This document shows, in pieces, positions 16,055 through 51,557 of a DNA stretch of 64,000 nucleotides. Both the position numbers and the translations under genes were made by a program. Origin of the DNA: Patescibacteria group bacterium. Its GTDB lineage: Bacteria; Patescibacteriota; Patescibacteriia; JAHJFT01. Location of the stretch: assembly GCA_028710985.1 (NCBI GenBank), contig JAQTTB010000001.1, positions 19,280 through 83,279 of the forward strand. The letters run 5' to 3'. Position 1 is the stretch's first letter, and each line of letters begins with the position of its first letter. Below the pieces are notes generated by a model. It ran no database searches and was not told the DNA's origin. It saw only the letters and a program-made list of their open reading frames with translations.

Positions 16055-17308
16055 ATGGAAATCAAATTAATAAAAATCGCTGAAAAATTTTTCAAAACCG
16101 ACATTAATTATTTAATTAAGGGCGGCTTTTGGCTTACTTCCGGGCAAATCCTTACTTCGCTGTCATCTCTAATTTTAGCAATCGCTTTTGCCAATTTGCT
16201 GGAAAGAGAATCTTATGGCACCTATAGATATATTCTTTCCGCAATCGGCATCATTTCGCTCTTTACTCTTCCGGGAATAAATACCTCTTTGATAAGATCG
16301 ATAGCGAATAATTTTTCCGGATCCTACCTGAAGGCAATTAAGACAAAGTTTAAATTTTCACTGATTGCCACTATAGCTTGCTTAATAGTCGGAATATATT
16401 ATTTTTATTGCCAAAATAATGAAATTGCCTTTTGTTTCTTTATTATTGCATCCATTATCCCTTTCAATAAATCATCCGAACTCTATTTGTCTGTACTGAA
16501 CGGCCAGAAAAGATTTAAACTCTATACTATTCTATATGCGAGTTCAAATATTATTGCAACGTTGTCAATAATCTTAACTTTATTTTTCACGGATAGTTTA
16601 GCGCTAATTTTAACGTCGTATTTCTTATCTTATACGATCCTGCAATTAATATTTTCTTTGTACGTAAAAAAATACCTAAACAACAATGAGGCTGATAATA
16701 CCGTTGAATATGGCATTCATTTGAGCATAATGGATGTAATCAAAACGATCGCCGGACATCTCGACAGGATACTCATATTCAACGCAATGGGACCGTTAGA
16801 GGTGGCTATTTACTCTTTTGCCGTTGTCCCGCATAGCCAGGCAAAAAGTTTCCTCGAAAATATTAAAGTCCTCGCTTTCCCCAAACTTAGCGCGTCCAAC
16901 GAGGAGGATATAAGAAAATTTTTACCAAAAAAAATTCTAAAAATGGAGCTCATAATCGCAATCTTGGTAATCATCTACATCTTCGCCGCTCCGACCCTAT
17001 TCCAAATATTTCTCCCGAAATACATGGATTCGGTCCTCTATTCCCAAGTGTACTTTATCTCGTTGATATTTTTCCCAAGAACAATTTTATCTACCGCAAT
17101 GACCGCAAAAATAAAAAAGAAAGAACTTTATTCCATAAGAATCCTCAGTCCAATACTAAGAATTATACTGATGGTCGTCGGATTAAAATTCTTTCAACTT
17201 TGGGGCGTACTCGTCGCGGGTATGGCGGCAAATGCGCTCATGATGTTAATCTACGGCTATTACTTTAAAAAAGCATTCAAGCAAATCACTTATCAATCAT
17301 CTCTCTAG
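16055..17308 (+). CDS. Wzx-like polysaccharide flippase (MOP superfamily)
   Basis: 417-aa ORF with ~12 TM helices and the typical N-terminal region (INYLIKGGFWLTSGQILTSLSSLILAIAFANLL). It is the first AT-rich gene of the island. Confidence 0.7.
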   Translation: MEIKLIKIAEKFFKTDINYLIKGGFWLTSGQILTSLSSLILAIAFANLLERESYGTYRYILSAIGIISLFTLPGINTSLIRSIANNFSGSYLKAIKTKFKFSLIATIACLIVGIYYFYCQNNEIAFCFFIIASIIPFNKSSELYLSVLNGQKRFKLYTILYASSNIIATLSIILTLFFTDSLALILTSYFLSYTILQLIFSLYVKKYLNNNEADNTVEYGIHLSIMDVIKTIAGHLDRILIFNAMGPLEVAIYSFAVVPHSQAKSFLENIKVLAFPKLSASNEEDIRKFLPKKILKMELIIAILVIIYIFAAPTLFQIFLPKYMDSVLYSQVYFISLIFFPRTILSTAMTAKIKKKELYSIRILSPILRIILMVVGLKFFQLWGVLVAGMAANALMMLIYGYYFKKAFKQITYQSSL

Positions 17309-18071
17309 AAAAAAGACTGTTGCGGGGATATATCAGCAAGATCTGAAATAGCAAATATACTATCGAAAAAATGATATATAGACCATACATCCATACTCCA
17401 TATCTAATATCGTACAAGCAAACCAATAATATCAATAAATACCATATCCATACGAAGTCGTAGATCATACTTACCGAATAGTTAAGAAATTTCATAAAAA
17501 CCTTTTTACCCGTAAAGAGGTTTTTATTATAATCCCTGAGGACATCCTGATGATTTTCAAGAGTAACTTTATATTTGATATGATGCCTCAACTTACCTAG
17601 CATTTTATAGTTAGTGAGCAATATGGAAAAAACAATGCTCGAAATTAATATCAGCATGTTCTGCGTAAGAACATAAAGAAAAACGCCCGTAGAAAAAGTC
17701 AAGGCAAACGGATAATAGAAATGAAATAATATCTCGTAATATATTCCCCTCTGAGTATAATGCTCACGATATCGGGCAATACCACCGTCTACCTTATCCA
17801 ACATTGATGATATTCTCATCAAAATAAGCTGGATAAAATATATCCAGAAAGGATCTACGGCAAATAACAGTAAATTAATAAAAAGGGAGATAATCAATAA
17901 CGCCACATTCAAAACGGACACGAAGTTGGGCGAAATTTTTGGAAAAATATTTAACAAAATAAATGTTATATACAAGGCCAGATAGCGTTCTGCGCGGTAT
18001 ATAATACCGCTCTTTTTTATTTTTTCCTGCTTGCCCAAGAAACATTTATCCCTCAGCTCAGAAAATGTCAT
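17286..18071 (-). CDS. polytopic membrane protein, CDP-alcohol phosphatidyltransferase-like with a degenerate motif
   Basis: 261-aa ORF. LDKVDGGIARYREHYTQRGIYYEILFH matches DG-x2-AR-x8-G, but the two terminal Asp residues are replaced (E, H). Its 3' end overlaps the convergent wzx-like gene by 23 nt. Confidence 0.4.
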   Translation of the reverse strand: MTFSELRDKCFLGKQEKIKKSGIIYRAERYLALYITFILLNIFPKISPNFVSVLNVALLIISLFINLLLFAVDPFWIYFIQLILMRISSMLDKVDGGIARYREHYTQRGIYYEILFHFYYPFALTFSTGVFLYVLTQNMLILISSIVFSILLTNYKMLGKLRHHIKYKVTLENHQDVLRDYNKNLFTGKKVFMKFLNYSVSMIYDFVWIWYLLILLVCLYDIRYGVWMYGLYIIFSIVYLLFQILLIYPRNSLFSREMIDK

Positions 18072-19177
18072 ATAAATTTAAATAATTTAATTAGTTTATC
18101 CGTCTGCTGTGATAAGGAAAAATTATCACGGACATGGGAAAATGCCGCCATCCCCATTTTATTTCTAGTTTCACTATCCAGCATTTTCTTTATAGCATTA
18201 CTGATTTGATCTTCATTGCCACGCTCAATAATAAACCCATTCACATTATCAAGCACTATCTTATTTATTCCCCCTACGGCAGTTGAAATAACCGGCAATC
18301 CACATGACATGGCCTCCAGTACGGCATTTGGACAACCCTCATTTTTAGAGTATAAAATAAAAATATCGGCCAATAGATACTGTTCTTTTAATTCCTCTCT
18401 ATCCAATAAACCGGTAAAAATAACTTTTTCTGCCAGCCCTAAATCAAGCGCAATTTTTTCGAAATGCTGCCGCAATTGACCCTCGCCGACGAGAACAAGT
18501 CTGGCGATAGGCAGACCCCGATCCACCATTTTTTTAAAAAAATAAATTAATTGTTCCTGGCCCTTGTTCTCATTTTTCATCGAGCCCACATTCAATAACG
18601 TTACCCGGTCAATTTTTTTACCTTTTCTTAATTCCCCCAATGCTCCTTCGGATATTTCAATTTCGACTCCATTATTAATAACAATCATCCGGTTTCGATA
18701 GAATGGCTGATACTTGACTAGGCTGTTCATTACTTCTTCTGAAACGGCGATTATCCTATAGCAACAAAAATTTAAAAAAACATCGATTATCCTTAAAAAC
18801 AAACTCTTTCGATCCGCCATCCCCGATTCTCGAATTAAAACCCTCAGCCTCGGATTAAAAATTTTCAAAAGTCTAGCAACGACGTTCGCCACATCTAGGG
18901 TAGAATAAACAAATTTTATATTGTTAGTTTTCACAAAAAGCAGGGTTCGATAAAATGATCTAACGTCAAATAAATACTTAAAATTAAAACTCACTACTTC
19001 ATTTTTTATTCGTAATTTGGAAACGAAGGTCTGTTCGGCGCGAAAAATCGTAGCAAAAAAAATATTAAATCCCTGCGCCGATAAATAGTTAGCCTGTTTT
19101 ATAAAATAAGTTTCGGCGCCGCCGACACCCAATCCGTTTATCAAAAGTAATATATTTTTAGTTGCAGATTCTTTCAT
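18068..19177 (-). CDS. glycosyltransferase, GT4-like
   Basis: 369-aa ORF: NGLGVGGAETYF...KNEGCPNAVLEAMSCGLPVISTAVGGINKIV. Confidence 0.85.
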   Translation of the reverse strand: MKESATKNILLLINGLGVGGAETYFIKQANYLSAQGFNIFFATIFRAEQTFVSKLRIKNEVVSFNFKYLFDVRSFYRTLLFVKTNNIKFVYSTLDVANVVARLLKIFNPRLRVLIRESGMADRKSLFLRIIDVFLNFCCYRIIAVSEEVMNSLVKYQPFYRNRMIVINNGVEIEISEGALGELRKGKKIDRVTLLNVGSMKNENKGQEQLIYFFKKMVDRGLPIARLVLVGEGQLRQHFEKIALDLGLAEKVIFTGLLDREELKEQYLLADIFILYSKNEGCPNAVLEAMSCGLPVISTAVGGINKIVLDNVNGFIIERGNEDQISNAIKKMLDSETRNKMGMAAFSHVRDNFSLSQQTDKLIKLFKFI

Positions 19178-19178
19178 A

Positions 19179-19847
19179 TCAGTTACACCGCACCACGGCC
19201 CATATTTCCCCCCAATTTATTTTGTAATCCGATATAGACATTCCGGCTGAATTCAGCTCTTCGGAAAAGTCATTAAAAGTATATTCAATAAAATGATTCC
19301 GATCCAATCGATATTCAAGTCCAAGCTCTTTTTTATACGGCACTAACCAATCCCGATTAATCATCGGCACGCGTATTAAAGCGATATCGCAAATATTTTT
19401 TATTTGCTTTAAAAGAGAAGTCCTATCATCTATATGCTCCAGTACATTAGATACTACGACGCGATCAAATTTTTCATTAAAACTATACTGTGTCGCATCG
19501 GCGACAATATATTCAACGTTTGGCAACGCGCAGTGCGATTTTGCATACTCAATACTGGTTTTATTCATATCAATCCCCACGACTCTTTTGGCCTTTTTGG
19601 CAATCTCGCGGGTCAAAATACCATTACCGCAGCCAATATCAAGGACGGTGTGCGATGGCTCGATATTATTTAGAAAAAAATCGTGATATTCAGTGAGGCG
19701 ATGCTTTGGATGTATCCCCCCCTCTCGCAATGAAGCGACCGTGACAATTTTATGCAATGCCCAATCGTGCAAATAAAATAATCGCCTCAGGATCCAGAGG
19801 GATAAATTTTTATTTTTAAACGCTCTTTTTAATAAATCCTTTAGCAT
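19179..19847 (-). CDS. class I SAM-dependent methyltransferase
   Basis: 222-aa ORF with motif I VLDIGCGNGILT, motif II VVGIDM, and VVVSNVLEHI. Confidence 0.8.
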   Translation of the reverse strand: MLKDLLKRAFKNKNLSLWILRRLFYLHDWALHKIVTVASLREGGIHPKHRLTEYHDFFLNNIEPSHTVLDIGCGNGILTREIAKKAKRVVGIDMNKTSIEYAKSHCALPNVEYIVADATQYSFNEKFDRVVVSNVLEHIDDRTSLLKQIKNICDIALIRVPMINRDWLVPYKKELGLEYRLDRNHFIEYTFNDFSEELNSAGMSISDYKINWGEIWAVVRCN

Positions 19848-20775
19848 ATTCTTTTAATGTGGAACTAATAATACTTTTTTTCTTTGAAAAAATCAGCATC
19901 TTTTCAAACAAATCATAAAAATGTTCCAATTCCTGTTCATTTTTCACATAAGGGCTTCCGCCGATCATCAGCTCGCTTGAATGCACCATAAAAACAGCTA
20001 CGGGAAAATTTTGTCTGAGTAAAGCTTCGAGCACAGACCTTATTTCATCAAAACTTGAGTTTGAGAATATCCTCAACCACCGCTGTTTAAAAAATAATTT
20101 ATTTAATACTTTTTTCAATAACGAATCCGGCAATAAAGCAAATGACCTAGAAATATATGAGGCCTCTCCAACGAAAGGTGAGGTAAACGCAACTGTCATC
20201 GGCACCTCCAATACCCCGTCCACTACCGAGGGCATCAGCGACGAACCGCGAAAATCCGGTCCCCGTCTATCGTGGCCGCCGGAAGAATTATTCTTCCATG
20301 ATATCTTTGGGGTTACCGAGCTGTCGGCGATATAGCCCAATTTATTCAAAAATCGCATTATCCGAATATCATAACCCCAGCGTCCGGCTCGATGAGTCTT
20401 TGGACTTATGCCAAAATTTTCCGCAATCGCCTTTGTTAAAGATGATAATTTTTTGTACAGCTCTTCGTCTTCAAGCTCATTAGGAAAACGATGCTTCAGC
20501 ATTTCCCATTCCCTGTCCTTCACACAAGGCGGTGTTGTCCAAGGATGCAAATGAGCCCCAACTTCCGCTGACCCGGAATCCTGAAAAGGCTTAAGAATAT
20601 TTACCGATTCTCTATCTACCGCAACCTCATAAGTTATAAAATATGTCGGTTTAAAGCGATATTTTTGGCAAAGCTCCTGGAAGCGAGGCAGAAATTTAAT
20701 ATTTTCAAGTGTAATTTCCTCAGATCTTTTCCACTGGTTGTCCGCCTCAACATCAACGGTTATTATTAATTTCAT
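19816..20775 (-). CDS. polysaccharide deacetylase-like (WalW/CE4-like) protein
   Basis: 319-aa ORF: MKLIITVDVEADNQW...VGAHLHPWTTPP...HRAGRWG. Recognised only by recollection of this family. Confidence 0.5.
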   Translation of the reverse strand: MKLIITVDVEADNQWKRSEEITLENIKFLPRFQELCQKYRFKPTYFITYEVAVDRESVNILKPFQDSGSAEVGAHLHPWTTPPCVKDREWEMLKHRFPNELEDEELYKKLSSLTKAIAENFGISPKTHRAGRWGYDIRIMRFLNKLGYIADSSVTPKISWKNNSSGGHDRRGPDFRGSSLMPSVVDGVLEVPMTVAFTSPFVGEASYISRSFALLPDSLLKKVLNKLFFKQRWLRIFSNSSFDEIRSVLEALLRQNFPVAVFMVHSSELMIGGSPYVKNEQELEHFYDLFEKMLIFSKKKSIISSTLKEYAKGFIKKSV

Positions 20776-22406
20776 ACATTTTTAAAACCCCTGATTCGCA
20801 TCCAATATTTGATAACGCTTGAATACACCTTGTAATAATAGTAACATTGTTTTCTTTCACCGCCAAATGCTTCCTTGAATTCAGCGATTGACCTGAGCCC
20901 CCTCTGATTTGAATCCGGACTTATGCCGCCTAAGTCAAAAATTTCATGATCCGTTAATTTCGCGTATCGAATTGCCTCCCAAACGATCATCCGATTTGCC
21001 TGCCCCACAATCTCGCACTGCTGGCTATCGGAAAAACGCAGTGAGGAAAGAGCCCAAGCACGAATATTCCTAGTATCGCTGATAAAAATACCGCCGGCGA
21101 TCATTTCGTTTTTATAATAAGCGGAAAAAAGTAAGCCGTTTTCTAGATAATGGTTGACTCTTTCGATGGGCAAACCTTTTTCTGAGCGAAAAATACTATA
21201 AATTCTTCTAAATTCCTTATGATTTAGGTCATTTTTTACGATAATCCCATTTCTTTCCCCTCTTTGAATCTGTTTACAGATATAATTTTTCCTCATCTTG
21301 CTCCAAATCGTTTCAATGCTCTGTCTTAAATCAATTACCGTGGTTAAACCCGCTCGTTTATGAAAATCTGGCTTATCAATATTGTGATAGGAAAAAAAAT
21401 TGATCATTCCAACGCCTGGAATGTCTTGCGGATCCTCAAACCATCGCCAGCACTTTTTTAAAAAATTAGTGTCAAATAAACCATAGCAAATCCGGCTAGA
21501 AATTACCGGCTTATGCGCCTTTATTAATATAAGATGTGAAAAACCTCTGATTATCGGCAAGTGTTCAGCGAGGCGAAAAAGCGTTGGATAAATTTTTTTT
21601 AAAAAACCCATCCTCTGTTCAAACGGAAGCGCTATGTCAATGAAACTAACATTGTCGATAAAAAAATTTTTGTTAAATAAATTTATTATATCTTTCGCGG
21701 AAAAATAATAATAATAAATACCCGAAGGATGAACTCCCTCTTTTGGTAATTTCTTTAATCTCCTCCTTAAATCAAGATGATACGCCGATAAAATCAACGG
21801 CTTGCCCGGCGCAAGGGTGAAATTAATGTTTTGGAGAAACTGATTACGATACGCATCGGATGGCAAATGCTCTAAGACTTGGGCAGAGAAAGCAATATCA
21901 AAAAAACCTTTTGCTGTTTTAAACGACGTTACGTCAGCCCAGACCAAACCAACATTATTGGATTTTAATTTGCACGAAAGTATCTCCAGCGAATTAAACG
22001 AGATATCCACCCCCAATAAACAACTATAATCAACAAATTCCTCTGTAAAACGACCTGTTCCGCAGCCATACTCAATTATTTTTTTTCCCGATACGTCGCC
22101 GACTTGCGCAAGCGTTGAGGGAATTTCCCTATCATGCCTCGCAGACAATCTAGCGTCATAACCGCCAGCTTGCGCATCTCTAACGGCTATCTCAGAACCT
22201 ATTTTTTCATCATTGACCGTCTGCTCCGGCAATATAAACAAAATCCCATTTTTAATTTGATATGCTTTCCCACAACGAACGCATTTTAGAAAACCATTAA
22301 ATATTGCCTCGTCATTGCCGCTTTCCATGCCACCAATTTCAAGACGAGCGTTATCAGATTGACAGACCAGGCAAGCAATAAGTTTTTTCGAAAATCCTAT
22401 CCTCAT
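20772..22406 (-). CDS. three-domain fusion: Trm112-like zinc ribbon + SAM methyltransferase + FemAB/GNAT(Acetyltransf_6)-like domain
   Basis: 544 aa. CLVCQS...CVRCGKAYQIKNGILFILPE (zinc ribbon). IIEYGCGTGRFTEEF...FDIAFSAQVLEHL (methyltransferase). The C-terminal ~200 aa read IRAWALSS...QANRMIVWEAIRYAK...DLGGISPD...GLRSIAEFKEAFGG (FemAB-like). Confidence 0.6.
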   Translation of the reverse strand: MRIGFSKKLIACLVCQSDNARLEIGGMESGNDEAIFNGFLKCVRCGKAYQIKNGILFILPEQTVNDEKIGSEIAVRDAQAGGYDARLSARHDREIPSTLAQVGDVSGKKIIEYGCGTGRFTEEFVDYSCLLGVDISFNSLEILSCKLKSNNVGLVWADVTSFKTAKGFFDIAFSAQVLEHLPSDAYRNQFLQNINFTLAPGKPLILSAYHLDLRRRLKKLPKEGVHPSGIYYYYFSAKDIINLFNKNFFIDNVSFIDIALPFEQRMGFLKKIYPTLFRLAEHLPIIRGFSHLILIKAHKPVISSRICYGLFDTNFLKKCWRWFEDPQDIPGVGMINFFSYHNIDKPDFHKRAGLTTVIDLRQSIETIWSKMRKNYICKQIQRGERNGIIVKNDLNHKEFRRIYSIFRSEKGLPIERVNHYLENGLLFSAYYKNEMIAGGIFISDTRNIRAWALSSLRFSDSQQCEIVGQANRMIVWEAIRYAKLTDHEIFDLGGISPDSNQRGLRSIAEFKEAFGGERKQCYYYYKVYSSVIKYWMRIRGFKNV

Positions 22407-22408
22407 AT

Positions 22409-23521
22409 TTATCCTAAAATCTTCATTAAATCATTATAAAACCGATCGGGGTTATACTGATTCTTTATCAATTCAAAGCCGGCATTTCCCATTTTTATTA
22501 AGTTGTGCTGATCCGAAATAGTCAGGCGAATCTTATCTATTAAATCGACCAAATTTTTACTTTCAAAGATGTAACCATTCACGCCATTCTCAATATATTC
22601 CTTCGTTCCATTTTCGCTCGAACTAATAACCGCCAGTTTGCAACTCATTGCTTCAACTATCGAAAAAGCCGCGGCTTCACCATAGCTCGGTAAAATGAAT
22701 ACATCATTTACTTTATATTCTTCATAAACATCCTTCCAATTAATATCAAATTTCACCTTCACAATTTCCGATAAATTATTAACTTTAATGTACTCTAATA
22801 ATTCATTTGTATATTCATTCTCATCCCTTTCGCCGACTAATGTAAGATTAATATTAAAATTATCTTTTAATTTTTCAACGGCCTTAACTAATAAAATCTG
22901 ATTCTTGCGCTCTTGGAATTTACCTACGCAGATAATATTAACCCATCCGCCAATAAAATACTCCTTGTTGAAGTCAAGCGCTTCATGAACAAATGGAATA
23001 TAAAAAAGATTCTTATTCTTACTTGCATAAGCGTCGTTACCCCTCAATGGAGTAATTACCGACGCCTTCCACAAAAAACCAACCAGCCAAATCGAGAAAC
23101 TCTTGATTTTTTTTCTAAATTTTTCAATTTGAATTAAAAAAATAATTTTTTTAACACCCAGGAACCGACTTAGAAGCGCGCCAAGGATTGAATAAAGACT
23201 ATCAATATTTTTTATCAGCACAACGTTCGGCCGATATTCCTTTATCAAATGATATAGTGAAAATATGGGTGGATAGCTATATCGTATCTCGAACCGATTC
23301 TTAATTGTGCGTCCACCCCGCTTATTGAATATTCTATTAAATAGCTTAAAAATATTCGAATATCCAACAACTCGCGGTTCTAGAATATCATAGCATTCTG
23401 ATTTTCCGCGATACATAACAAACATGGCCACTTCGTGTCCAAATGACTGAAGGGCCTCAATCATGTAGAAAAAATTTGTATGATATCGCGGGGTAAGAAA
23501 TAAAAATTTCATTGATTTCAA
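22409..23521 (-). CDS. glycosyltransferase, GT4-like
   Basis: 370-aa ORF: YGEAAAFSIVEAMSCKLAVISSSENGTKEYI. Confidence 0.8.
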   Translation of the reverse strand: MKSMKFLFLTPRYHTNFFYMIEALQSFGHEVAMFVMYRGKSECYDILEPRVVGYSNIFKLFNRIFNKRGGRTIKNRFEIRYSYPPIFSLYHLIKEYRPNVVLIKNIDSLYSILGALLSRFLGVKKIIFLIQIEKFRKKIKSFSIWLVGFLWKASVITPLRGNDAYASKNKNLFYIPFVHEALDFNKEYFIGGWVNIICVGKFQERKNQILLVKAVEKLKDNFNINLTLVGERDENEYTNELLEYIKVNNLSEIVKVKFDINWKDVYEEYKVNDVFILPSYGEAAAFSIVEAMSCKLAVISSSENGTKEYIENGVNGYIFESKNLVDLIDKIRLTISDQHNLIKMGNAGFELIKNQYNPDRFYNDLMKILG

Positions 23522-27080: not shown

Positions 27081-28913
27081 TTATAATTCAAGCTTATTTT
27101 TACGGTAAAATTTTACAAAACTTATCAAACCCCACAACTCTCTACTATAATCTTTCTTATTCCCCATATGATCCGCAACCATTTTTTCAATCGCTTTACC
27201 ATTTAAAAATGCTATATCCGCAATATTCTTTTTATCTAAAATATCCATCATGAAATCCTTTAATTCATTCTTCAGCCAATCCGCGATCGGAAAGCTGAAT
27301 CCCTGCTTCTTTGTATAAATTAACTTTTTCGGTAAATACCTCTCTAGAAGCTTTTTTAAAATATACTTAGTGGTGATACCGCGAATTTTTAATCCCGGCG
27401 CCAAGGAATTGCTAAACTTTATTACTTCGTTGTTCAAGAAAGGAACACGTACCTCTAAAGAATTAGCCATGCTCATTCGATCGACCTTGACTAAATACTC
27501 CCCTTCCAGCACGGTTTTCTGATCAACATACAATAGCTGATTCAGCACATCTTCCCCCTCCACGACTTTAAAATACTCTGCAAAATCGTCGCAAACATTG
27601 TTAAAAAAATCTTCAACTAGGATATCCGCATTATGCATTATTCTATAATAAAAATGAGATTTTGTAAATGGATACTTGGCCGCATAAACAAACCTTTTTA
27701 ACTTATAATCAAAGCTCATTTTTCTGTAAGAAGACGGCAAATAATGAACCATTTTTTCCACCAATGTTTTTATGGGCAGGTGGCGATAAATTTGACTAAT
27801 TCTAGGCAAATAATAGATAGGGTAACCCCCAAATAACTCATCCCCGCCGTCGCCGGATAAGCAGACTGTCGCTCGCTCTTTTGCAAAATGGCACAAGAAA
27901 TATGTGGGAATCGCGCTGCTGTCACCAAAAGGCTCCTGAAAATAATCAAAAATATCCGGAATGGCATTTATGACCTCCCTCTTCTCTAGATAAATCGAAT
28001 TATGATTAGTGCCAATAATCTTTGCGATTTTACTGGCGTTCTTTGATTCGTCATAAGAATTCTCACCGAAATTAAATCCAACCGTAAATGTATTCAGGTT
28101 TCCTACATGCTCCTTGGCGATGGCGGTGATTAAACTAGAATCAACGCCGGAGGATAAGAATACCCCCAATGGCACATCGCTGACCAAGGATTGTTCGATT
28201 GATTCATCGAGCACGCACCGTAGGGCATCGATTGAATTATTAAGATCTTGATAATTATTTGTAAATGTCGGTTTCCAATATTCCTGAATATTAATTTGCT
28301 CTTTCTGCAAATCAAAAATCGCAAAACTAGCCGGTGGCAATTTAAAAACGTTTTCAATTATGGACTCATTGCCATAAATGTAATTTTGATAAAAAAATCT
28401 TCTGACTGCCCTTAAATTAATTTTTTTGTTGATCTGGAGCGATGCCAGCTCAGAGGCGAATTGAAATATCCCGTCATGAAAACTATAGTAAAGTGGTTTT
28501 ATTCCCATTCGATCTCTGGCCAAAATTAATTGATTTTTAACTTCATCGTAAATTGCCAGGGCGAACATGCCATCGAATAATTTGAAGGCTTCTGGTCCAT
28601 ATTTAATATAGGCCCTTAATACAACCTCCGTATCGGAATCGGAGAAATAGTCACCGGGCAAATCTTTTTTTAATTTTTTAAAATTATATACTTCACCATT
28701 GTAGACAATCGCATAGGCGCCAATTCTCATGGGTTGGCTCGCCCTTTGAGAAAGATCAATGATAGAAAGACGCCGGTGTCCTAATTTGACCCTCTGATCT
28801 TCGGATATAAAAAAACCTGCCGCATCCGGACCGCGGTGGAGCATTGAATCTCTTCTCTTCAAAAAAATTTCCTTATCAAATTTCGATGAATATTCTCCGA
28901 TAATTCCGCACAT
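27081..28913 (-). CDS. asparagine synthase (glutamine-hydrolysing)-family amidotransferase
   Basis: 610-aa ORF with the N-terminal nucleophile MCGIIG, a GATase-II domain and the PP-loop LSSGVDSSLITA. Confidence 0.9.
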   Translation of the reverse strand: MCGIIGEYSSKFDKEIFLKRRDSMLHRGPDAAGFFISEDQRVKLGHRRLSIIDLSQRASQPMRIGAYAIVYNGEVYNFKKLKKDLPGDYFSDSDTEVVLRAYIKYGPEAFKLFDGMFALAIYDEVKNQLILARDRMGIKPLYYSFHDGIFQFASELASLQINKKINLRAVRRFFYQNYIYGNESIIENVFKLPPASFAIFDLQKEQINIQEYWKPTFTNNYQDLNNSIDALRCVLDESIEQSLVSDVPLGVFLSSGVDSSLITAIAKEHVGNLNTFTVGFNFGENSYDESKNASKIAKIIGTNHNSIYLEKREVINAIPDIFDYFQEPFGDSSAIPTYFLCHFAKERATVCLSGDGGDELFGGYPIYYLPRISQIYRHLPIKTLVEKMVHYLPSSYRKMSFDYKLKRFVYAAKYPFTKSHFYYRIMHNADILVEDFFNNVCDDFAEYFKVVEGEDVLNQLLYVDQKTVLEGEYLVKVDRMSMANSLEVRVPFLNNEVIKFSNSLAPGLKIRGITTKYILKKLLERYLPKKLIYTKKQGFSFPIADWLKNELKDFMMDILDKKNIADIAFLNGKAIEKMVADHMGNKKDYSRELWGLISFVKFYRKNKLEL

Positions 28914-28919
28914 AGATAC

Positions 28920-29399
28920 TTAATTCTCTTTAAAGCAAAAAACGAATCTTTTATTAATTAAAAATGTAAAAAAGGACATTAATAATCCGACCAGGGCAAC
29001 GGATAAAAGGTAATAAAAACCTAAAATAGTTGTTAGCAAATAGACCAAAGTGAAGGTAATTAATCCTATTGCGCCATATATCGCGAGATAACCAAGGTAC
29101 CTTGCAACATAACCTGATTTTCCATGACCAGAAAATGTAAATAATGAATTCATTATAAAACTAAAAGTCCAGGTAATAAAAGTTGCGATTACAAAAGATA
29201 ACATGTACCAAAAATGCAGTGATTCAGTAAAAATGAAAGTTAATAATAAATTCAACAAAAAAGAACTGACTCCAATGATGAAAAATATCGGATATCTCCT
29301 AAAGATATTTATTATATTCAAAGCCATCTTGAAAAAATTAATAAAGTCACGCTTCAACAATTTTCTTTTTACGACCTCCGAATTTCCATGAATTGCCAT
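28920..29399 (-). CDS. GtrA-like small membrane protein
   Basis: 159-aa ORF with 4 TM helices, ending in FLINKRFVF. The start may be the internal ATG at 29327 (MALNIINIF), because 29399 overlaps the upstream gene by 53 nt. Confidence 0.6.
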   Translation of the reverse strand: MAIHGNSEVVKRKLLKRDFINFFKMALNIINIFRRYPIFFIIGVSSFLLNLLLTFIFTESLHFWYMLSFVIATFITWTFSFIMNSLFTFSGHGKSGYVARYLGYLAIYGAIGLITFTLVYLLTTILGFYYLLSVALVGLLMSFFTFLINKRFVFCFKEN

Positions 29400-35237: not shown

Positions 35238-36337
35238 GTTTCGTTATAAAGTTTTAATGTCGCCTCCTTGCCCGGAAGTCGCTCTAACGCGTTCTTGGCA
35301 TTTTGACTAAACTTCATTTTTAATTCAGGGTTATTCTTTACTTTGACCAATGCGTCAGAAATCGCACTTATATTATTTACCGGGACCACGATACCATTCT
35401 CATAGTTTTTTACCACCTCTCCGGCGCAACCGACGTCGGTCATGATAACTGCGCAGCTGCAAGCCAGGGATTCAATAGCCACCCTGCTCCATCCTTCGTA
35501 TTCAGAGGTCAATAAAACACAATCCGCTCCCTTAAAAAAACTCACAACGTCCTGGGTCCAGGGAATGAAAATCACCGATTCACCCAAGCCCAATTCGCCT
35601 ACCAATCTTTTTAATTCTTTTTCCTGACTCCCCTCGCCAACAATGAGCAAGCCGCTCTTAGGACTTTTTTTTAAGAACATTAAAAATGCTTTTAAGGCAA
35701 CGTCTATTCTTTTTACCCTCTCCAATCGCCCCATAACCAGAGCGATAAAATCAAATTGTGAATATTTTTCCTTTAGATTAAAATCCGGCTCCTTTAATTC
35801 CAGACTTTTCCAAGGTGTGCAAATCGGCAGAACCGTTATCTTTTCTTGATTAATCCCTCTCTTGATTAAGTCCCGCTTGATTCTCTGACTAACCGCTCTG
35901 ATAGAATCGGCCTTTTTTATAATTCCCAAGCCAAGATACCATCGTAGATTGTTCAAAAAATTTTCTCCGCGCCAATGAGGATTACTAAAAAAATCGCCAT
36001 GGAGTTGAATATTCAAACCTAAACCGAATTTTCTTTTAGCGAAATATCCGATTAACCCGATGGCAAACGGGTCTTGAACCGAAACGACATTAATATTGCT
36101 GCGCTTAATAATGCTGGCTGCTTCCCTCCACAATTTTAACCAGCCAAAAAATTTATTATTAACTCCCACGGATCGTACGAATACGTTGTCGGTTAATTGT
36201 ATATTCGTGCTACAACCAGCCGGCAGCAAAATATAAAATTTATTACCAATAAAATTGGCGTAACTCTTAAATCTCTCCTGTGTCTCGCTACCCGACTTTA
36301 AAATTCTTGCATCGGTGCCAATTATCAAAATGTTCAT
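35213..36337 (-). CDS. glycosyltransferase, GT4-like
   Basis: 374-aa ORF: EYEGWSRVAIESLACSCAVIMTDVGCAGEVV. Confidence 0.8.
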   Translation of the reverse strand: MNILIIGTDARILKSGSETQERFKSYANFIGNKFYILLPAGCSTNIQLTDNVFVRSVGVNNKFFGWLKLWREAASIIKRSNINVVSVQDPFAIGLIGYFAKRKFGLGLNIQLHGDFFSNPHWRGENFLNNLRWYLGLGIIKKADSIRAVSQRIKRDLIKRGINQEKITVLPICTPWKSLELKEPDFNLKEKYSQFDFIALVMGRLERVKRIDVALKAFLMFLKKSPKSGLLIVGEGSQEKELKRLVGELGLGESVIFIPWTQDVVSFFKGADCVLLTSEYEGWSRVAIESLACSCAVIMTDVGCAGEVVKNYENGIVVPVNNISAISDALVKVKNNPELKMKFSQNAKNALERLPGKEATLKLYNETWDKAIKK

Positions 36338-37338
36338 TTCAGCTTCAAATTAATTGCTTTAATTATCGGCTTATTGGCAATGCTGCAGTTTTTGCATACC
36401 GGCAATTCCTGCTCAATGACTGCTCTTCTGATTTTTGCGTATTTATCGCTCTGCCAAATTTTATTAAAACTTCTTTCTTCAAAAACATTACCAACCACGA
36501 TGCTCCCCTCAAGATCGGTGCAGCATACACCCACATCACCGTTCCAAAGTATCACACTGCGCCAAATCCAGGGGCATGTCTTTGGCTTATCTATATTCAC
36601 GAGTCTACCCTCCTTCAGGCGATAGCGACTATTTTTTAAATCCGTTGGCAGAAACTCCAAGGCATTTGCTAGAAGCTTTTCCTGAAGTTCGGCCGTTGAC
36701 CCGATATTGAAAGAAGCGCTTTTAAACCACAGGGCGTCAACTCCGAGCTTGCGGCCCAAATCCTCAATCGCTCCCATCTCACGCTCATTGAACTTCATTA
36801 CCAAGAATTGAATAATAATCCTTGTCTTGCGGTTTTTGATGCCCGCTATCTGCCGCAGGGTTCCAACTATTTTATTAAAATCGCTATTGACACGATATTT
36901 CTGCTGCGTCTCGGCCGATGCTCCGTCCATGGCAAAAATCAAATTATCAATTCCATAGCCGACCGCCTCGCGATACCTTTCAACCGGCATGGTCCCATTA
37001 GTACTAACTGTCAATATATAACCGTGGTCTTTGAGATACTTCACCATCGCCGGAAACTCAGGATTGGCGAATGATTCGCCGGAAAAGTGCAAAGTAATTT
37101 TTTTGATGCTCCTGGGCAAATAACTTTCTATTTCCTCGAGCTGTTTCAAGGTTAAAAATCCTCTCGGCTTGGTTGACGTTCTCTGAATGCAAAACGGACA
37201 ACGCAAATTACAAAAACTCGAGGCCTCAATAATTATTTCTTTAAGCGGCCTAACCCTCCGAATCCAGGCATCTGGAAGCAATAACAGCGCTCTGTTGAAC
37301 AGAGTCGATTTACTTATTTTATCTTTCAGCCAATACAT
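36334..37338 (-). CDS. radical SAM enzyme with C-terminal SPASM-type Cys cluster
   Basis: 334-aa ORF: SSFCNLRCPFCIQ (CxxxCxxC). C-terminal CPWIWRSVILWNGDVGVCCTD...LPVCKNCS. Confidence 0.85.
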   Translation of the reverse strand: MYWLKDKISKSTLFNRALLLLPDAWIRRVRPLKEIIIEASSFCNLRCPFCIQRTSTKPRGFLTLKQLEEIESYLPRSIKKITLHFSGESFANPEFPAMVKYLKDHGYILTVSTNGTMPVERYREAVGYGIDNLIFAMDGASAETQQKYRVNSDFNKIVGTLRQIAGIKNRKTRIIIQFLVMKFNEREMGAIEDLGRKLGVDALWFKSASFNIGSTAELQEKLLANALEFLPTDLKNSRYRLKEGRLVNIDKPKTCPWIWRSVILWNGDVGVCCTDLEGSIVVGNVFEERSFNKIWQSDKYAKIRRAVIEQELPVCKNCSIANKPIIKAINLKLK

Positions 37339-45661: not shown

Positions 45662-47620
45662 TTATTTTATTTCAACGGCATTAATATTGTCAAAAACGCC
45701 ACTGATAAAGCGCAGATTAATTTTATTATTATAAATTTCCGCGATGGCGATTCTCACCTCTCCGACAATATAGTCATAAAATGCTTTCAAGTCAAACTGA
45801 TTCGCCTGCGTCGCCCAGTTTGCGCTGCGGAGGAACGCGCCATTCCGATCGAATGATTTTATATATATATTTCCGTCTGTTTTATAAGTAACCAGTATCT
45901 CTTCTTCTTCGCCCGTATCCAAATTTTGCGTCGCAACGAATATTGGCCCCGTGATTTTCTCTGCCGCTTGAAAATTTGAAACCAAGACGCCACTCTTCCT
46001 AAATATCTTAATATGCAAAACACCGGCATCAATAAATCCCACGATTATTTCATCCGTGTCATCGGCATCAATATCTCCAGCCGTGACCGTAACGCCGCCG
46101 CGAAAACCAGAAGTATACGCCATAAAATTACCCTGAATTTCCCCTCTTTCATTAAACACTAGTATATGCGGACCGCCGCCCGGACCCGGCGCGGTGATAA
46201 TTTCATCGTTCACCGTCCGGCTGTCCACATTTCCGACGGCGATATTCACGCCACCGCGGAAAAGCGAATTATACGCAAAAAATTGTCCGTACAATTTCCC
46301 TGTCTCGCTAAAAATACGCACCTGCGGACCGCCGCCCGGACCCGCGCCGACCACAATTTCTTTTTGACCGTCATTATTTACGTCGCCGCTCTGAGCCGTG
46401 AACCCCTTTTTGAAACTATCCGGAAACACCGCGAAGCTATCTTTGACTTCCCCGCCGCTCCCAAGCTCACGGACAACCGGCGTAAAACCAAGCGGCGCAC
46501 CGATTACAAGCGATGAACCGCTCTTTGCCGCTTCAAGCGCCAACTCAAGCGCAGCGCGCGCATCCACGCGCGTTCCCAAGCCTCCGGCAAAATCCGGATT
46601 GATCCCGTCAATTATCACGCCGCTTTTTACCAAAATTTCATTGATTTCACGAGCCGAGAGCCCGGGCGCGATTGATTTCACGAGTGCGGACACGCCGGAA
46701 ACAATCGGCGCCGCAAACGAAGTGCCCGACCAATCGTCATCATAGAATGTATCAAAATCCGCAATTGCCGAGTTATAAACACGCGCGCTCCATATATCCA
46801 TGCCCGGTGCCGAAACATCAACGCAGGCTTTGCCAAAATTTGAAAATTTCGCTTTTTGATCCAACGTGTCGGTTGCCGCGACTCCAAGTACGTATATTTC
46901 ATTCTCATATTGATCAATGCACACCGGAAATTCATCGTACATATCCAAGTTCGAGCCGCCCGATTCGTCCGGCGTATTGCCGGCCGCCGCCACTACTACT
47001 ACTCCCGCTTCCCAGGCGCGGCGCACCGCAGTTGACATATCCTCGCTAAAATTAAAACCTACAAAACTCAAATTAATCACATCCGCACCATTTCGAATGG
47101 CGTAATAAATCGCTTTTGCCACATTGTCCGAGAATCCGTTACCCGTGGCATCGAGCACCTGAAGCGGCATTATCTTGCTCTCCCAGGTGATTCCGGCCAT
47201 GCCGTTCCGATTATTCCCTTCGGCTGCGATGATGCTCGCCACCGCCGTGCCATGGCTAATTCCCTCTTCCGCATATCCGTTGGAAAAATTCGGCAATATA
47301 TTTCCGTTATTATCCGAGAAATTCCATCCATTCACATCATCAATATAATCATTCTTATCATCATCGATTCCGTTTGCCGGAATTTCATCTTCATTGATCC
47401 AAGCATTGCCATCCAATTCCGGATGCGAAATATCCACGGCCGTATCAATCACTGCGACAATCACCTTCGGACTGCCGGTCGAAATATCCCAGGCGCGTTC
47501 GGCATCAATCTGACGCAAATACCACTGACGCGAAAAATCCGTATCGTTTGGGGTGAAAGCCTGCGCGCCTTGAACCGCAACGAATACAAAAATTATTGTG
47601 CAGAATATAAACTTTTTCAC
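45662..47620 (-). CDS. secreted subtilisin-like (S8) serine protease fused to FG-GAP/VCBS beta-propeller repeats
   Basis: 652 aa with a GTG start and signal peptide MKKFIFCTIIFVFVAVQGAQA. Catalytic triad: AVIDTAVD, HGTAVASI, SGTSFAAPIVSG. C-terminal repeats: FxAY...FRGGVxVxxGDxDxDxxDEIIxGxGPGGGPxxxVF. Confidence 0.9.
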   Translation of the reverse strand: MKKFIFCTIIFVFVAVQGAQAFTPNDTDFSRQWYLRQIDAERAWDISTGSPKVIVAVIDTAVDISHPELDGNAWINEDEIPANGIDDDKNDYIDDVNGWNFSDNNGNILPNFSNGYAEEGISHGTAVASIIAAEGNNRNGMAGITWESKIMPLQVLDATGNGFSDNVAKAIYYAIRNGADVINLSFVGFNFSEDMSTAVRRAWEAGVVVVAAAGNTPDESGGSNLDMYDEFPVCIDQYENEIYVLGVAATDTLDQKAKFSNFGKACVDVSAPGMDIWSARVYNSAIADFDTFYDDDWSGTSFAAPIVSGVSALVKSIAPGLSAREINEILVKSGVIIDGINPDFAGGLGTRVDARAALELALEAAKSGSSLVIGAPLGFTPVVRELGSGGEVKDSFAVFPDSFKKGFTAQSGDVNNDGQKEIVVGAGPGGGPQVRIFSETGKLYGQFFAYNSLFRGGVNIAVGNVDSRTVNDEIITAPGPGGGPHILVFNERGEIQGNFMAYTSGFRGGVTVTAGDIDADDTDEIIVGFIDAGVLHIKIFRKSGVLVSNFQAAEKITGPIFVATQNLDTGEEEEILVTYKTDGNIYIKSFDRNGAFLRSANWATQANQFDLKAFYDYIVGEVRIAIAEIYNNKINLRFISGVFDNINAVEIK

Positions 47621-50700: not shown

Positions 50701-51557
50701 GTATTAAGAATGACATTGCCGTCCGAGCTCGCGGTCACAGCGACCTTAATAAGCTGCACGCTTGACGAACCCTGGGCGACAGTTGCGCCCGCCGGGGTGT
50801 CAGAGGCCAAGGCCACGGCAAGACCGGTGCCTGTGCCGGAAACGCCGGCTACAAGATCCGTAATGCCCGCTTCACCGCCGGTAACCGCGGTTCCGTCCGC
50901 ATAAGTTACATCGGCCGCGACTGGGCTAATTACGAAACGCCATTGGAACATGTTGGCATCAAATGCCGCCTCGTTCGCAATTGCGCGCTTCTGACCATCC
51001 TGAATGTAGTAGACGGATGCACCAGAAGCATACTTAATCAAGCATCCATTCGGATGCACATAAGTGCTGATTGAGGTGCCGATTGAATAGTTGGTGAAGA
51101 ATGAATCCGGAACGTCAACTACCCAGCTGGCCCAATTTGTTCCCCAGAGTTTCTGGGCAACGGCCTCGGTCTCAACCCAATGCAAAACACCGCCGGTCGT
51201 CACGGCATAAACCTTGGGATCGGTGGTAATTTTGATTAGGAATGTACCTGGGCGGATTGTGATATTTCCGCCGATAGAGACTGCCGCGAGTTCCGCGTCA
51301 GTGATCTCTTTCAGGGTTGAGAAATCGGGGTACCATGAATAATAGGTGTTCTCGTTCGGGAAAACGTATCTCTTACCATCTGCTGCGTAATAATACACCG
51401 CCGGTTGGCTGGCCTTAATAAGGTCGCCTGCGGACAAGGTCGCTGCTTCCGCTGCCAAAGGCATTATGAAAGCCGCAAAACCGATTGACCACGCCATGGT
51501 GGTGATAACTACGCCAACGGTAAGGATCCTCTTTGAAATGCGTAGAACTTCAGTCAT
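47778..51557 (-). CDS. large secreted modular surface protein (S-layer-like or adhesin-like; family not recognised)
   Basis: 1259 aa with signal peptide ...FIMPLAAEA/AT. Three N-terminal ~60-aa modules: PAVYYYAADGKRYVF, PKVYAVTTGGVLHWV, ASVYYIQDGQKRAI. Then repeated T/S/A/G/V-rich ~100-130-aa modules ending ITAGTTKYLTVRGD, ISNGTTKTLYVKADV, VNAGTTKNLALKADV, IPAGETKTLVVKAIL. Confidence 0.7.
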   Translation of the reverse strand: MTEVLRISKRILTVGVVITTMAWSIGFAAFIMPLAAEAATLSAGDLIKASQPAVYYYAADGKRYVFPNENTYYSWYPDFSTLKEITDAELAAVSIGGNITIRPGTFLIKITTDPKVYAVTTGGVLHWVETEAVAQKLWGTNWASWVVDVPDSFFTNYSIGTSISTYVHPNGCLIKYASGASVYYIQDGQKRAIANEAAFDANMFQWRFVISPVAADVTYADGTAVTGGEAGITDLVAGVSGTGTGLAVALASDTPAGATVAQGSSSVQLIKVAVTASSDGNVILNTLTFHRLGVGTASDFTNVYLYEGSTRLTSGRSINTSSNEAQFNNLNLTITAGTTKYLTVRGDLSSTAIAADEHALELVATSKVGTTATVSGSFPIRGNTFTVGAQDAATLTVNEGSDPANVTVGSLAATISSFKLTAASADIKLNQISIAQAGTVVNSDVTNLKLYVGTELVAETATIVGDKINFILATPYLISNGTTKTLYVKADVVGKGGRSIITYLEYTTDVDATDNTYGWGAAVNIDDFDSGDSVTTNTEGGQLTIAYNGPATGTMPKAGQDQIFFQFGMTAAENTLEVRKISFTLAGINGDDYIDASTTDLFTDIKLVDTDSGEVVAGPTQLSSGSPACGEDATTCTWVVSDSFYVNAGTTKNLALKADVANNAWFNSDRQYVAKLNAFAADYVKNNATGEYLAVTQIVPNAVITGNTMTVKTSSLTVQLAATPVSDTYVKKTSDVASSGFVFTAGSQSAIKVTSVKVTGQGNVNGAGYTAAQLDDVITQLTLWDGTTQLGTAESPDATAGTATFDGLSYSIPAGETKTLVVKAILDSVATSGGTDDTFWVGIALETDISAEDADANSVTATDGDVTWSNPINNGPTIFQTVKNSGTLTIAAESNPSTDIVIAGKDAWTTFAQAKITSQYENISVDKIRLQRYSGGANSDFKYLAIQKDGVIVSSGTDVFPGSATATDITLSTPITVPADGSVTFQVVGKLNAIDAGATSGNNPKLAVEYNVTTGEWDANYTNSYNVKGTGAMSGERVYAAASAVLAGNPMVIRKTKLTFAKQALASSSLANGTIELYKTKVTADSAGDAGVAKLTFEFTKSGAFTVDTLKWFQDGTDISDLVTITDNLGNTVEGATDASGTIFISYTSGTEQSISGSGHIFTLKGTVGGAGSSESLNVTIKTGSSTIYTYHLNAAAVGTVRGPNLDATGVVGGEVAAYLVWSDKAAIPHNAQLDTLSTGDWTDEYLVKDLTENVVLTF

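Follow-up and report, generated by a model that had tools for sequence, protein, structure and literature searches.

A Trm112-like ribbon, a methyltransferase and a truncated Fem-like domain fused in one protein of a Patescibacteria polysaccharide cluster

Fem-type transferases are the textbook example of aminoacyl-transfer RNA (aminoacyl-tRNA) being diverted from the ribosome, with the amino acid going instead to peptidoglycan or membrane lipids, to N-degron substrates or into a small number of antibiotics. The presence of Fem-like genes has also long been noticed in exopolysaccharide (EPS) loci, for example HfsK and the PEP-CTERM FemAB, and we know of none for which a donor or a product has been demonstrated. 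Here we describe a Fem-like domain in a polysaccharide cluster of an uncultivated Patescibacteria bacterium. The window, a 64,000-nt stretch of DNA (NCBI assembly GCA_028710985.1, contig JAQTTB010000001.1, positions 19,280 to 83,279), contains a gene for a 544-amino-acid (aa) protein in which a Trm112-like zinc ribbon and a class I S-adenosylmethionine (SAM)-dependent methyltransferase are joined to a truncated Fem-like domain that we call mini-Fem. The gene is followed by one for a protein resembling CE4 polysaccharide deacetylases, and the arrangement suggests that a surface glycan of these bacteria may bear a methylated amino acid.

Enzymes of the FemABX family, among them FemX(Wv) of W. 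viridescens, FemX/FmhB of S. aureus, FemA/B and MurM, are defined by two tandem GNAT-like lobes (~335-420 aa). Domain 2 has been proposed to contact the acceptor stem of the tRNA, while domain 1 of FemX contributes to the UDP-MurNAc-pentapeptide/acceptor binding site; the role of FemX Lys305 has also been described (PMC12945691). A second group, from actinomycete antibiotic pathways, comprises three aminoacyl-tRNA-dependent peptide synthases that act on streptothrisamine: Sbb17 and Sba18 (PDB 9wqw, 9wqx and 9wqy) and Orf11, which belongs to the BD-12 pathway. Streptothrisamine is an amino sugar, and the Sbb17 and Sba18 structures were crystallised with it. Orf11, which has been modelled with two GNAT lobes, makes an amide on streptothrisamine with Gly-tRNA (PMC12945691). 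Fem-like proteins of EPS synthesis form a third group. In Caulobacter, it has been proposed that holdfast sugars are deacetylated by the deacetylase HfsH and subsequently re-acylated by the FemX-like HfsK (PMC5362036), and in the Actinoplanes EPS cluster wps-3 a Fem-like gene lies next to a deacetylase gene (PMC13390465). Neither HfsK/HfsH (PMC5362036) nor wps-3 (PMC13390465) has an established donor or product.

The fusion gene is real and conserved. An earlier note on this DNA, made from the letters alone, had described a single uninterrupted 544-aa open reading frame (ORF) at 20772-22406; the ORF is indeed free of interruptions, and its strand is corrected here to minus. Mis-assembly or a lost stop codon, which would have undone that description, can be rejected: the identical 544-aa product is encoded both on a 744-kb contig of an NCBI Patescibacteria metagenome-assembled genome (MAG) and in the Logan assemblies of two different runs, SRR22315506 and SRR22315509, and many diverged orthologues carry the same junction. 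Approximately 19 orthologues with 38-51% identity can be aligned end to end across the module junction with no break. Gene order was compared in a locus scan that used one genome per species (GTDB) followed by hidden Markov model (HMM) classification, giving 22 close and 33 distant loci. The same fusion was found in four of the 22 close loci.

Comparison with other genomes also defines where the modules meet. In pairwise alignments, stand-alone homologues of ~300 aa stop at query residue 299, a clean boundary between an N-module (ribbon and methyltransferase) and a C-module (~303-544). Elsewhere the C-module forms the C-terminus of GT4 glycosyltransferases (~620 aa), and in one case it follows a GT4 and an N-module (904 aa); in other genomes the N- and C-modules are separate adjacent genes. 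Four loci illustrate this range. L003 and L004 have the fused form and the same gene order as the window. In L005 the protein is split, with a 315-aa N-module gene followed immediately by a 247-aa stand-alone mini-Fem that is 55% identical to the query C-domain. L006 encodes a GT4-mini-Fem fusion, and of the GT4 proteins in the window the one at 18068-19177 is the best match to its GT4 part. This is Rosetta-stone behaviour, the modules being fused in the window and encoded elsewhere by adjacent genes or as a GT4-mini-Fem fusion. A neighbor-joining tree of the C-domain mixes fused, split and GT4-fused forms, as would be expected if fusion and fission had happened repeatedly; because its internal branches are short and carry no support values, it was not used as evidence.

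The earlier note had also presented the protein as three normally separate modules in one chain. All three are present; the pairing of ribbon and methyltransferase, however, is the standard form of the N-module, found also in stand-alone ~300-aa proteins, and the unusual feature of the protein is the attached mini-Fem domain. NCBI names the protein simply "class I SAM-dependent methyltransferase". The note did not recall the architecture as described, and a search of the accessible literature likewise found no description of the truncated Fem-like family or of its fusion to a Trm112-methyltransferase or to GT4. It also turned up nothing pertinent on exopolysaccharides aminoacylated with the help of tRNA, or on characterised Acetyltransf_6 proteins.

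Single-sequence searches were insufficient for the Trm112, Fem and CE4-like modules, and family profiles were needed. For the C-domain, a 25-sequence profile matched PDB chains named "aminoacyl-tRNA-dependent peptide synthase" (E=3e-7) and FemX (E=0.006). Phe304-Lys305 of FemX is aligned by the HMM with F211-K212 of the C-domain, a pair that is invariant in the family and equivalent to F510-K511 of the full protein, such that the predicted catalytic lysine is preceded by an aromatic residue in an FK motif, as in FemABX enzymes. With the FemAB model PF02388, the query scores 16.3 bits as a whole protein and 19.4 bits as an isolated domain, below the cut-off of 24; 21/25 family members match at E<1 (best 4.4e-7), and more distant stand-alone relatives such as the protein P0089 (38.7 bits) pass the cut-off. 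These scores indicate homology to FemABX, not membership by the curated criterion. Acetyltransf_6 (PF13480, "BioF2-like") gives a similar picture, with no match to the query, matches at E<1 for 21 of the 25 members (best 8e-6) and distant stand-alone relatives above the cut-off. The best Fem-type NCBIfam match of the query and its relatives is TIGR03019 (PEP-CTERM-associated FemAB), to which the query scores 17 bits against a cut-off of 260.

Structure also bears on the identity of the C-domain. An AlphaFold2 (AF2) model of the isolated domain (pLDDT 94.4, pTM 0.90; for the full-length fusion protein, pLDDT 90 and pTM 0.71) shows the GNAT core fold (beta1-alpha1-alpha2-beta2-4-alpha3-beta5-alpha4-beta6). 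As modelled, the domain comprises one complete GNAT lobe, corresponding to Fem domain 2, preceded by a ~50-residue three-strand remnant of domain 1. The two tandem lobes of FemABX are thus not present, and ~200 of the 337 residues of FemX align. The best 27 Foldseek matches of the C-domain in the PDB are all aminoacyl-tRNA-dependent transferases (Sbb17/Sba18, FemX, MprF/aa-PGS and FemA). Sbb17/Sba18, in the structures with streptothrisamine, matched at E=5e-15 (TM 0.65) with a second score of 16.8, followed by W. viridescens FemX at 7e-12 (17.0 over 200 aligned residues), the MprF and aa-PGS domains at ~1e-10 (15.0 for MprF and 13.3 for L-PGS), FmhB at 2.4e-9 (15.1) and FemA at 1.4e-8 (13.8). 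The first entry of another kind, and the best acyl-CoA GNAT, matched at 2e-7 or worse, with a second score of <=11.8 (~120-157 residues aligned). By both profile and structure, therefore, the FemAB/GNAT-like identity that the earlier note assigned to this domain stands; its length is ~245 aa, not the ~200 aa given there. Since the domain fails the curated threshold and lacks the double-GNAT architecture, we do not file mini-Fem as a FemABX member.

Relatives of mini-Fem are numerous. An exhaustive search of 1.84 billion representatives with the C-domain profile yielded 5,600 proteins at E<=1e-3, 1,359 at E<=1e-10 and 114 at E<=1e-30. Stand-alone proteins of 200-300 aa made up 117 of the 141 representatives first seen in this search (P0040-P0180), and an FKxxFGG-like motif is retained in 89/123 and in 101/112 stand-alone relatives. 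Members are known from Patescibacteria and also, in stand-alone form, from Archaea. The stand-alone relatives, some of them archaeal (Methanospirillum and Nitrososphaeria), are named in their source databases "lipid II:glycine glycyltransferase", "GNAT family N-acetyltransferase" or "hypothetical". The first of these names, when given to mini-Fem proteins of archaea or of glycan loci, is probably a systematic mis-annotation. One relative, P0089 (L007 3431-4777), carries a ~180-aa GatB_Yqey/GatE-type tRNA-binding tail. It was not used as evidence, being an unreplicated singleton on a 5.8-kb Logan contig: the tail, which has 62% identity with the terminal part of an ordinary GatE, is shared by none of ~120 homologues, and meets the mini-Fem part with no GC break, so that the protein is either a unique domain capture or the product of a chimeric contig.

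The most informative partner of the fusion, and one absent from the earlier note, is the CE4-like gene directly downstream, the ATG of which overlaps the TGA of the fusion gene (ATGA). Its product scores 24.5 bits with PF01522 (cut-off 23.1), and four of five orthologues match this model. A search with the single sequence gave spurious matches only, while the orthologue profile matched the polysaccharide deacetylase 3rxz in the PDB (E=0.0056). Three motifs are invariant among the orthologues (TVDxEAD, HLHPW and RAGRWG); they resemble CE4 motifs 1-3 yet differ from them. There is no hydrophobic segment in this protein, and none in the fusion protein (maximum Kyte-Doolittle 19-residue value 1.2). 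With neither transmembrane nor signal segments, both proteins are predicted to be cytoplasmic, where aminoacyl-tRNA is available.

Gene order ties the two proteins together. A CE4-like gene lies within 2 kb (<=2 kb) of mini-Fem in all 22 close loci and directly downstream in 17 of them; it was found in none of the 33 distant Fem-like loci, most of which are from Lachnospiraceae. The close loci come from Parcubacteria, Saccharibacteria, Magasanikbacteria, Falkowbacteria, Vogelbacteria, Lloydbacteria, Taylorbacteria and Paceibacterota. Among the Saccharibacteria, several genomes have the module (L018, L019, L023, L028 and L032). Two of the close loci are on MAG contigs labelled "uncultured Gammaproteobacteria" (L020 and L026), with a Patescibacteria-type module (methyltransferase, mini-Fem and CE4-like gene) at 52-54% identity, which could reflect mis-binning or horizontal transfer. 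In L003-L006, an orthologue of the window's CE4-like gene (47-50% identity) lies just downstream of mini-Fem; it is directly adjacent in three of the four, with an 83-aa ORF intervening in L006. The CE4-like partner in L005 is broken into two ORFs (255 and 58 aa), which may reflect a frameshift or pseudogene, or else an error in sequencing. The Trm112-methyltransferase module is more variable: across the 22 close loci it is fused to mini-Fem in four, encoded by a separate adjacent upstream gene in nine, nearby in three and absent from six. The contrast between the universal CE4-like gene and the variable methyltransferase indicates that mini-Fem and the CE4-like gene form the core, and that the methyltransferase is often added to it as an accessory, in some cases by fusion. 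The association extends beyond the close loci. Mini-Fem genes of Methanospirillum (L008), a Nitrososphaeria archaeon (L009) and a metagenomic contig (L010) lie in glycan loci with Wzx and GT4, and a targeted search found a CE4-like relative in L008 and L010, two of these three distant stand-alone loci (E ~1e-8), with GxHxH and AGRW motifs kept.

The N-terminal ribbon was likewise resolved by profile. The query alone matches NCBIfam Trm112_arch below the cut-off (E=1e-6) and the Pfam model at E=0.23. A 25-member profile matches 6zxw_H, a 60-aa uncharacterised protein (E=4.6e-13), chains named Trm112 (1e-7 to 1e-5) and 6f5z_C, the Trm112 activator of H. volcanii (1.4e-5); of 25 family members, 19 match Pfam Trm112p (PF03966). 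By profile, then, the region has Trm112-type zinc-ribbon sequence and fold, with the query by itself sub-threshold. The CxxC...CxxC ribbon with KNGILFILPE reported in the earlier note is present; its full cysteine pattern, however, is peculiar to the query, since C15 and C42 are invariant in the family, C45 is found in 22/29 members and C12 in the query only. Trm112 proper is a separate activator subunit of methyltransferases whose targets belong to the translation apparatus (Trm9, Trm11, Bud23 and Mtq2; Trm112-Hvo_0019 in H. volcanii). The fusion shares with these holoenzymes the combination of a Trm112-type ribbon with a class I methyltransferase; it differs from them in that the two are covalently joined in cis, are encoded in a glycan cluster, and have a predicted substrate outside the translation apparatus.

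The methyltransferase assignment, based in the earlier note on the GCGTG motif I, is borne out by five Pfam models (Methyltransf_23, 25, 11, 12 and 31) that score 30-47 bits, above their gathering thresholds (E ~1e-12), and by Foldseek matches to solved methyltransferases (E ~1e-14). The module thus belongs to the class I SAM-dependent enzymes, with their Rossmann-like fold and glycine-rich motif I, and it bears a conserved C-terminal extension (aa ~210-299). Among characterised enzymes, profile comparison places it closest to amine N-methyltransferases, namely plant phosphoethanolamine N-methyltransferase (PMT; 2.7e-17), ToxA, and the peptide alpha-N-methyltransferase CypM (1e-9). NodS is a recurrent weak match (Pfam E=0.0024, NCBIfam E=1e-5, Foldseek 3ofk TMt 0.78). 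These relatives hint at N-methylation.

The identities of the modules, the conservation of catalytic residues, the cytoplasmic location, and the coupling through gene fusion and gene order have been shown computationally. On this basis we propose, with a probability of roughly 45%, that the fusion protein acts in the cytoplasm as a three-module tailoring enzyme for a surface polysaccharide of the Wzx/Wzy type, in a pathway that involves deacetylation, tRNA-dependent aminoacylation and methylation. A neighboring GT4 would install an N-acetylhexosamine (HexNAc) on a lipid-linked repeat unit at the cytoplasmic face of the membrane; a nucleotide sugar is a less likely substrate. The CE4-like protein would strip the N-acetyl group from the HexNAc, and mini-Fem would move an amino acid from aminoacyl-tRNA to the freed sugar amine to form an amide, by a substrate-assisted mechanism that uses the Fem-type Phe-Lys pair (F510-K511), as in FemX. 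The Trm112-stabilised methyltransferase would then methylate the product, most plausibly at the new alpha-amino group, before Wzx flips the modified unit. The result would be the coupled aminoacylation and methylation of a sugar that the earlier note had suggested. The donor and the de-N-acetylated hexosamine acceptor are inferred, as are the order of the steps, the methylation site and the use of any particular amino acid. The CE4-like gene next door provides a rationale for where the amino acid would go, and the aminoacyl-tRNA donor is indirectly supported by the structural ranking, the basic character of the mini-Fem domain (net charge +12) and the cytoplasmic location. Fusion of aminoacylation with methylation, or elsewhere of GT4 with aminoacylation, would keep consecutive steps on one membrane-bound intermediate, and mini-Fem, having lost most of domain 1, may depend on partners to bind the glycan intermediate, which could account for its frequent fusion or tight linkage to them. 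More tentatively, the truncated family as a whole (~240 aa) may carry out aminoacyl-tRNA-dependent aminoacylation of de-N-acetylated amino sugars on lipid-linked surface-glycan units, with N-methylation of the transferred residue physically coupled to it in Patescibacteria.

Among described enzymes, mini-Fem would work most like Sbb17/Sba18/Orf11 and FemX. It shares with Sbb17/Sba18 the FK..FGG and G..N motifs, and the amide that Orf11 makes on an amino sugar is the chemistry proposed here. Those proteins, however, are stand-alone (~290-310 aa), have no methyltransferase/Trm112 module or CE4 partner, and act on a small molecule in actinomycete antibiotic pathways, whereas the fusion belongs to a Patescibacteria polysaccharide cluster and has a domain 1 of three strands. 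From FemX(Wv), FemX/FmhB, FemA/B and MurM it keeps the Phe304-Lys305 pair and the domain-2 lobe; it is unlike them in its length (~245 aa against 335-420 aa), its sub-threshold PF02388 score (16-19 against 24 bits), the loss of most of domain 1, the absence of a peptidoglycan gene context and the fusion to a methyltransferase. HfsK, the PEP-CTERM FemAB (TIGR03019) and EPS genes annotated as "BioF2-like acetyltransferase" share with mini-Fem the combination of a Fem-like protein, EPS synthesis and a polysaccharide deacetylase, although HfsK has tandem GNAT domains like FemX and a cyclic di-GMP-binding tail, and is not fused. The catalytic domain of MprF/aa-PGS (DUF2156) is more remote: it makes an ester on a lipid head group, has a double GNAT and is fused to a flippase, and its identity to mini-Fem is just 11-15%. 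The logic of the proposed pathway has a parallel in Nod factors, which are deacetylated by NodB, N-methylated by NodS and N-acylated by NodA. There, too, the amine of a glucosamine is freed by a CE4 deacetylase, N-methylation is the work of a class I methyltransferase and N-acylation that of a transferase; NodA, however, is not a GNAT/Fem protein and uses an acyl-acyl carrier protein (acyl-ACP) donor, the three Nod enzymes are separate proteins, and their substrate is a free chito-oligosaccharide.

Several observations weigh against this proposal. The donor is not readable from sequence, and the use of tRNA by a form lacking most of Fem domain 1 is without direct precedent. The query falls short of the FemAB cut-off, the CE4 assignment of the partner is marginal, and the sole tRNA-linked fusion found, P0089, is the unreplicated singleton described above. 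A search of the window for tRNA genes found none, dedicated or otherwise. Similarities of the methyltransferase span the Rossmann core only, and so they do not settle N- versus O-methylation; the cluster also holds at least four other methyltransferases.

[quoted passage not shown] The Acetyltransf_6 model matched by 21/25 members carries the description of an acetyltransferase domain, little more than a single GNAT lobe is left once most of domain 1 is lost, and the authors of the HfsK study deemed its donor unpredictable (PMC5362036). A loose xxxGxA, read from the sequence, is present at the beta4-alpha3 junction, where GNATs bind the CoA pyrophosphate; however, the G..N residues of this junction align with Sbb17 and not with a CoA P-loop. 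Moreover, the Fem-specific FK pair and the FGG motif, common to Sbb17, are invariant, and the top structural matches are all tRNA-dependent, with a clear score gap to the acyl-CoA enzymes. To our knowledge, acyl-CoA use has been shown for no member of the Acetyltransf_6/Fem clade, which also counts against such a donor. Even with aminoacyl-tRNA as the donor, the acceptor could be something other than a sugar amine: a glycerol- or inositol-phosphate hydroxyl, giving an ester as with MprF, or the amine of a phosphoethanolamine, with a PMT-like methyltransferase then methylating the head group. The MprF/aa-PGS catalytic domains are among the top structural matches, the best matches of the methyltransferase are phosphoethanolamine N-methyltransferases (E ~1e-17), and the conserved block includes a CDP-alcohol-phosphatidyltransferase-like gene that might install phosphoethanolamine. 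It is nevertheless the CE4-like gene, not the CDP-alcohol transferase, that is the universal and usually directly adjacent partner (22/22), the CE4-bearing distant loci L008 and L010 have no CDP-alcohol transferase nearby, and Sbb17, the closest match by sequence and structure, makes an amide on an amino sugar. We regard these other acceptors as improbable.

Database names imply a peptidoglycan enzyme, that is, a Fem transferase that forms branches on lipid II or a UDP-MurNAc-peptide. While FemX and FmhB are among the top structural matches and stand-alone relatives carry the name "lipid II:glycine glycyltransferase", the gene is within a Wzx/Wzy/GT cluster with no mur or fem neighbors, other genomes fuse the domain to GT4, and domain 1, the contributor to the UDP-MurNAc-pentapeptide site, is mostly missing. 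Close stand-alone relatives, likewise in glycan loci, occur in Methanospirillum and Nitrososphaeria, and such archaea are not known to have murein. A peptidoglycan role is therefore very improbable. We attach just as little weight to the idea that the methyltransferase follows the Trm112 paradigm and acts on tRNA or another translation component, the glycan context being incidental. The substrates of all characterised Trm112 partners known to us are tRNA, rRNA or release factors, support for the Trm112-like ribbon is good, and the methyltransferase matches METTL6 and the Trm112 partner Hvo_0019 in Foldseek as well as the tRNA methyltransferase 5cm2_Z by sequence (3.8e-8). Its best sequence matches, however, are small-molecule and peptide amine methyltransferases; the GT4/CE4/Wzx synteny is strictly conserved across many lineages, and the N-module, where there is one, is fused to mini-Fem, directly upstream of it or nearby.

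The surroundings of the gene agree with its placement by the earlier note in a glycan operon: it sits in the low-GC core of a long, mostly minus-strand Wzx/Wzy-type polysaccharide cluster (~9.5-45.7 kb). The cluster encodes a polyprenyl glycosylphosphotransferase, a Wzx-like flippase, a Wzy_C/TPR protein, many GT4/GT2 glycosyltransferases, several methyltransferases, an AsnB-like amidotransferase, a GtrA-like protein and a radical SAM/SPASM protein. Positions 16000-42000 of the window form a low-GC island (GC 0.35-0.42, against ~0.50 in the flanks), which could reflect horizontal acquisition or a hypervariable glycan locus. Several other genes in the region deserve mention (Table 1). The CDP-alcohol-phosphatidyltransferase-like protein could equip the glycan with a phospho-alcohol substituent. 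Two methyltransferase stretches are present in a 478-aa protein, the gene for which overlaps that of the GtrA-like small membrane protein; together with three further methyltransferases, this protein suggests a heavily methylated glycan. For the AsnB-type glutamine amidotransferase, the nearest model is TIGR03108, the amidotransferase of the XrtA/PEP-CTERM system (E=3.6e-141, below the cut-off); PEP-CTERM models thus come up twice, here and as the PEP-CTERM FemAB model for the fusion query. The radical SAM/SPASM gene lies between GT4 genes, and its best NCBIfam model ("tungsten cofactor oxidoreductase radical SAM maturase") is far below cut-off. Two multi-transmembrane proteins of 568 and 554 aa have no Pfam or NCBIfam match and may be unrecognised polymerases or membrane glycan-modifying enzymes; the larger is conserved in the same position in L003 (41% identity). 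Just past the Wzy_C/TPR gene, a 1259-aa ORF with no Pfam match adjoins an S8 subtilase gene.

Table 1. Coordinates of the fusion gene, its modules and neighboring genes in the window, and of mini-Fem and CE4-like genes in other loci
Feature	Position	Strand	Basis or remark
Fusion gene, tri-modular 544-aa protein (Trm112-like ribbon, class I methyltransferase, mini-Fem)	20772..22406	minus	single ORF, ATG start
Trm112-like zinc ribbon, aa 1-66 (C12, C15, C42, C45; KNGILFILPE strand)	22209..22406	minus	family profile
Class I SAM-dependent methyltransferase, aa 67-299	21510..22208	minus	Pfam models; boundary from stand-alone homologues
Motif I GCGTG, aa 114-118	22053-22067	minus	in the methyltransferase module
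Mini-Fem domain, aa 300-544, ~245 aa	20775..21509	minus	motifs GQANRM 468-473, FDLGGI 490-495, EFKEAFGG 509-516
F510-K511 codons, predicted catalytic Phe-Lys pair, equivalent to FemX(Wv) Phe304-Lys305	20874..20879	minus	HMM alignment
CE4/NodB-type deacetylase-like partner, 319 aa, predicted cytoplasmic	19816..20775	minus	PF01522, orthologue alignment
GT4 glycosyltransferase upstream of fusion	22409..23521	minus	2 nt from fusion start; same position in L003 (45% identity)
Rest of conserved block	17286..19847	minus	three genes
Small class I methyltransferase	19179-19847	minus	conserved block
GT4	18068-19177	minus	window GT4 closest to GT4 part of GT4-mini-Fem fusions
CDP-alcohol-phosphatidyltransferase-like membrane protein	17286-18071	minus	weak archaetidylinositol-phosphate-synthase similarity; in L003, L004 and L005 blocks
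Multi-transmembrane protein, 568 aa	23518-25224	minus	
AsnB-type glutamine amidotransferase	27081-28913	minus	TIGR03108
GtrA-like small membrane protein	28920-29399	minus	
Double-methyltransferase protein, 478 aa	29347-30783	minus	
Multi-transmembrane protein, 554 aa	31754-33418	minus	
Radical SAM/SPASM protein	36334-37338	minus	
S8 subtilase	45662-47620	minus	
1259-aa ORF	47778-51557	minus	
Distant stand-alone mini-Fem, Methanospirillum	L008 7001-7750		
Distant stand-alone mini-Fem, Nitrososphaeria archaeon	L009 7001-7816		
Distant stand-alone mini-Fem, metagenomic contig	L010 6123-7810		two tandem copies
Broken CE4-like partner, two ORFs	L005 7688-8631		

The locus offers an explicit and testable hypothesis in the form of a compact unit of mini-Fem, a CE4-like deacetylase and, often, a Trm112-methyltransferase. 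Should the donor be acyl-CoA, mini-Fem would be an ordinary glycan N-acyltransferase with an unusual fusion. If the proposed use of aminoacyl-tRNA is correct, the minimal Fem catalytic unit would be one GNAT lobe, and the widespread annotation of mini-Fem proteins as "lipid II:glycine glycyltransferase" or "GNAT" would be corrected. The non-ribosomal, tRNA-dependent transfer of amino acids would then extend from peptidoglycan, lipids and antibiotics to surface polysaccharides in general, and organisms with hardly characterised envelopes would be seen to have a new way of making surface glycans that are N-methylated and decorated with amino acids.

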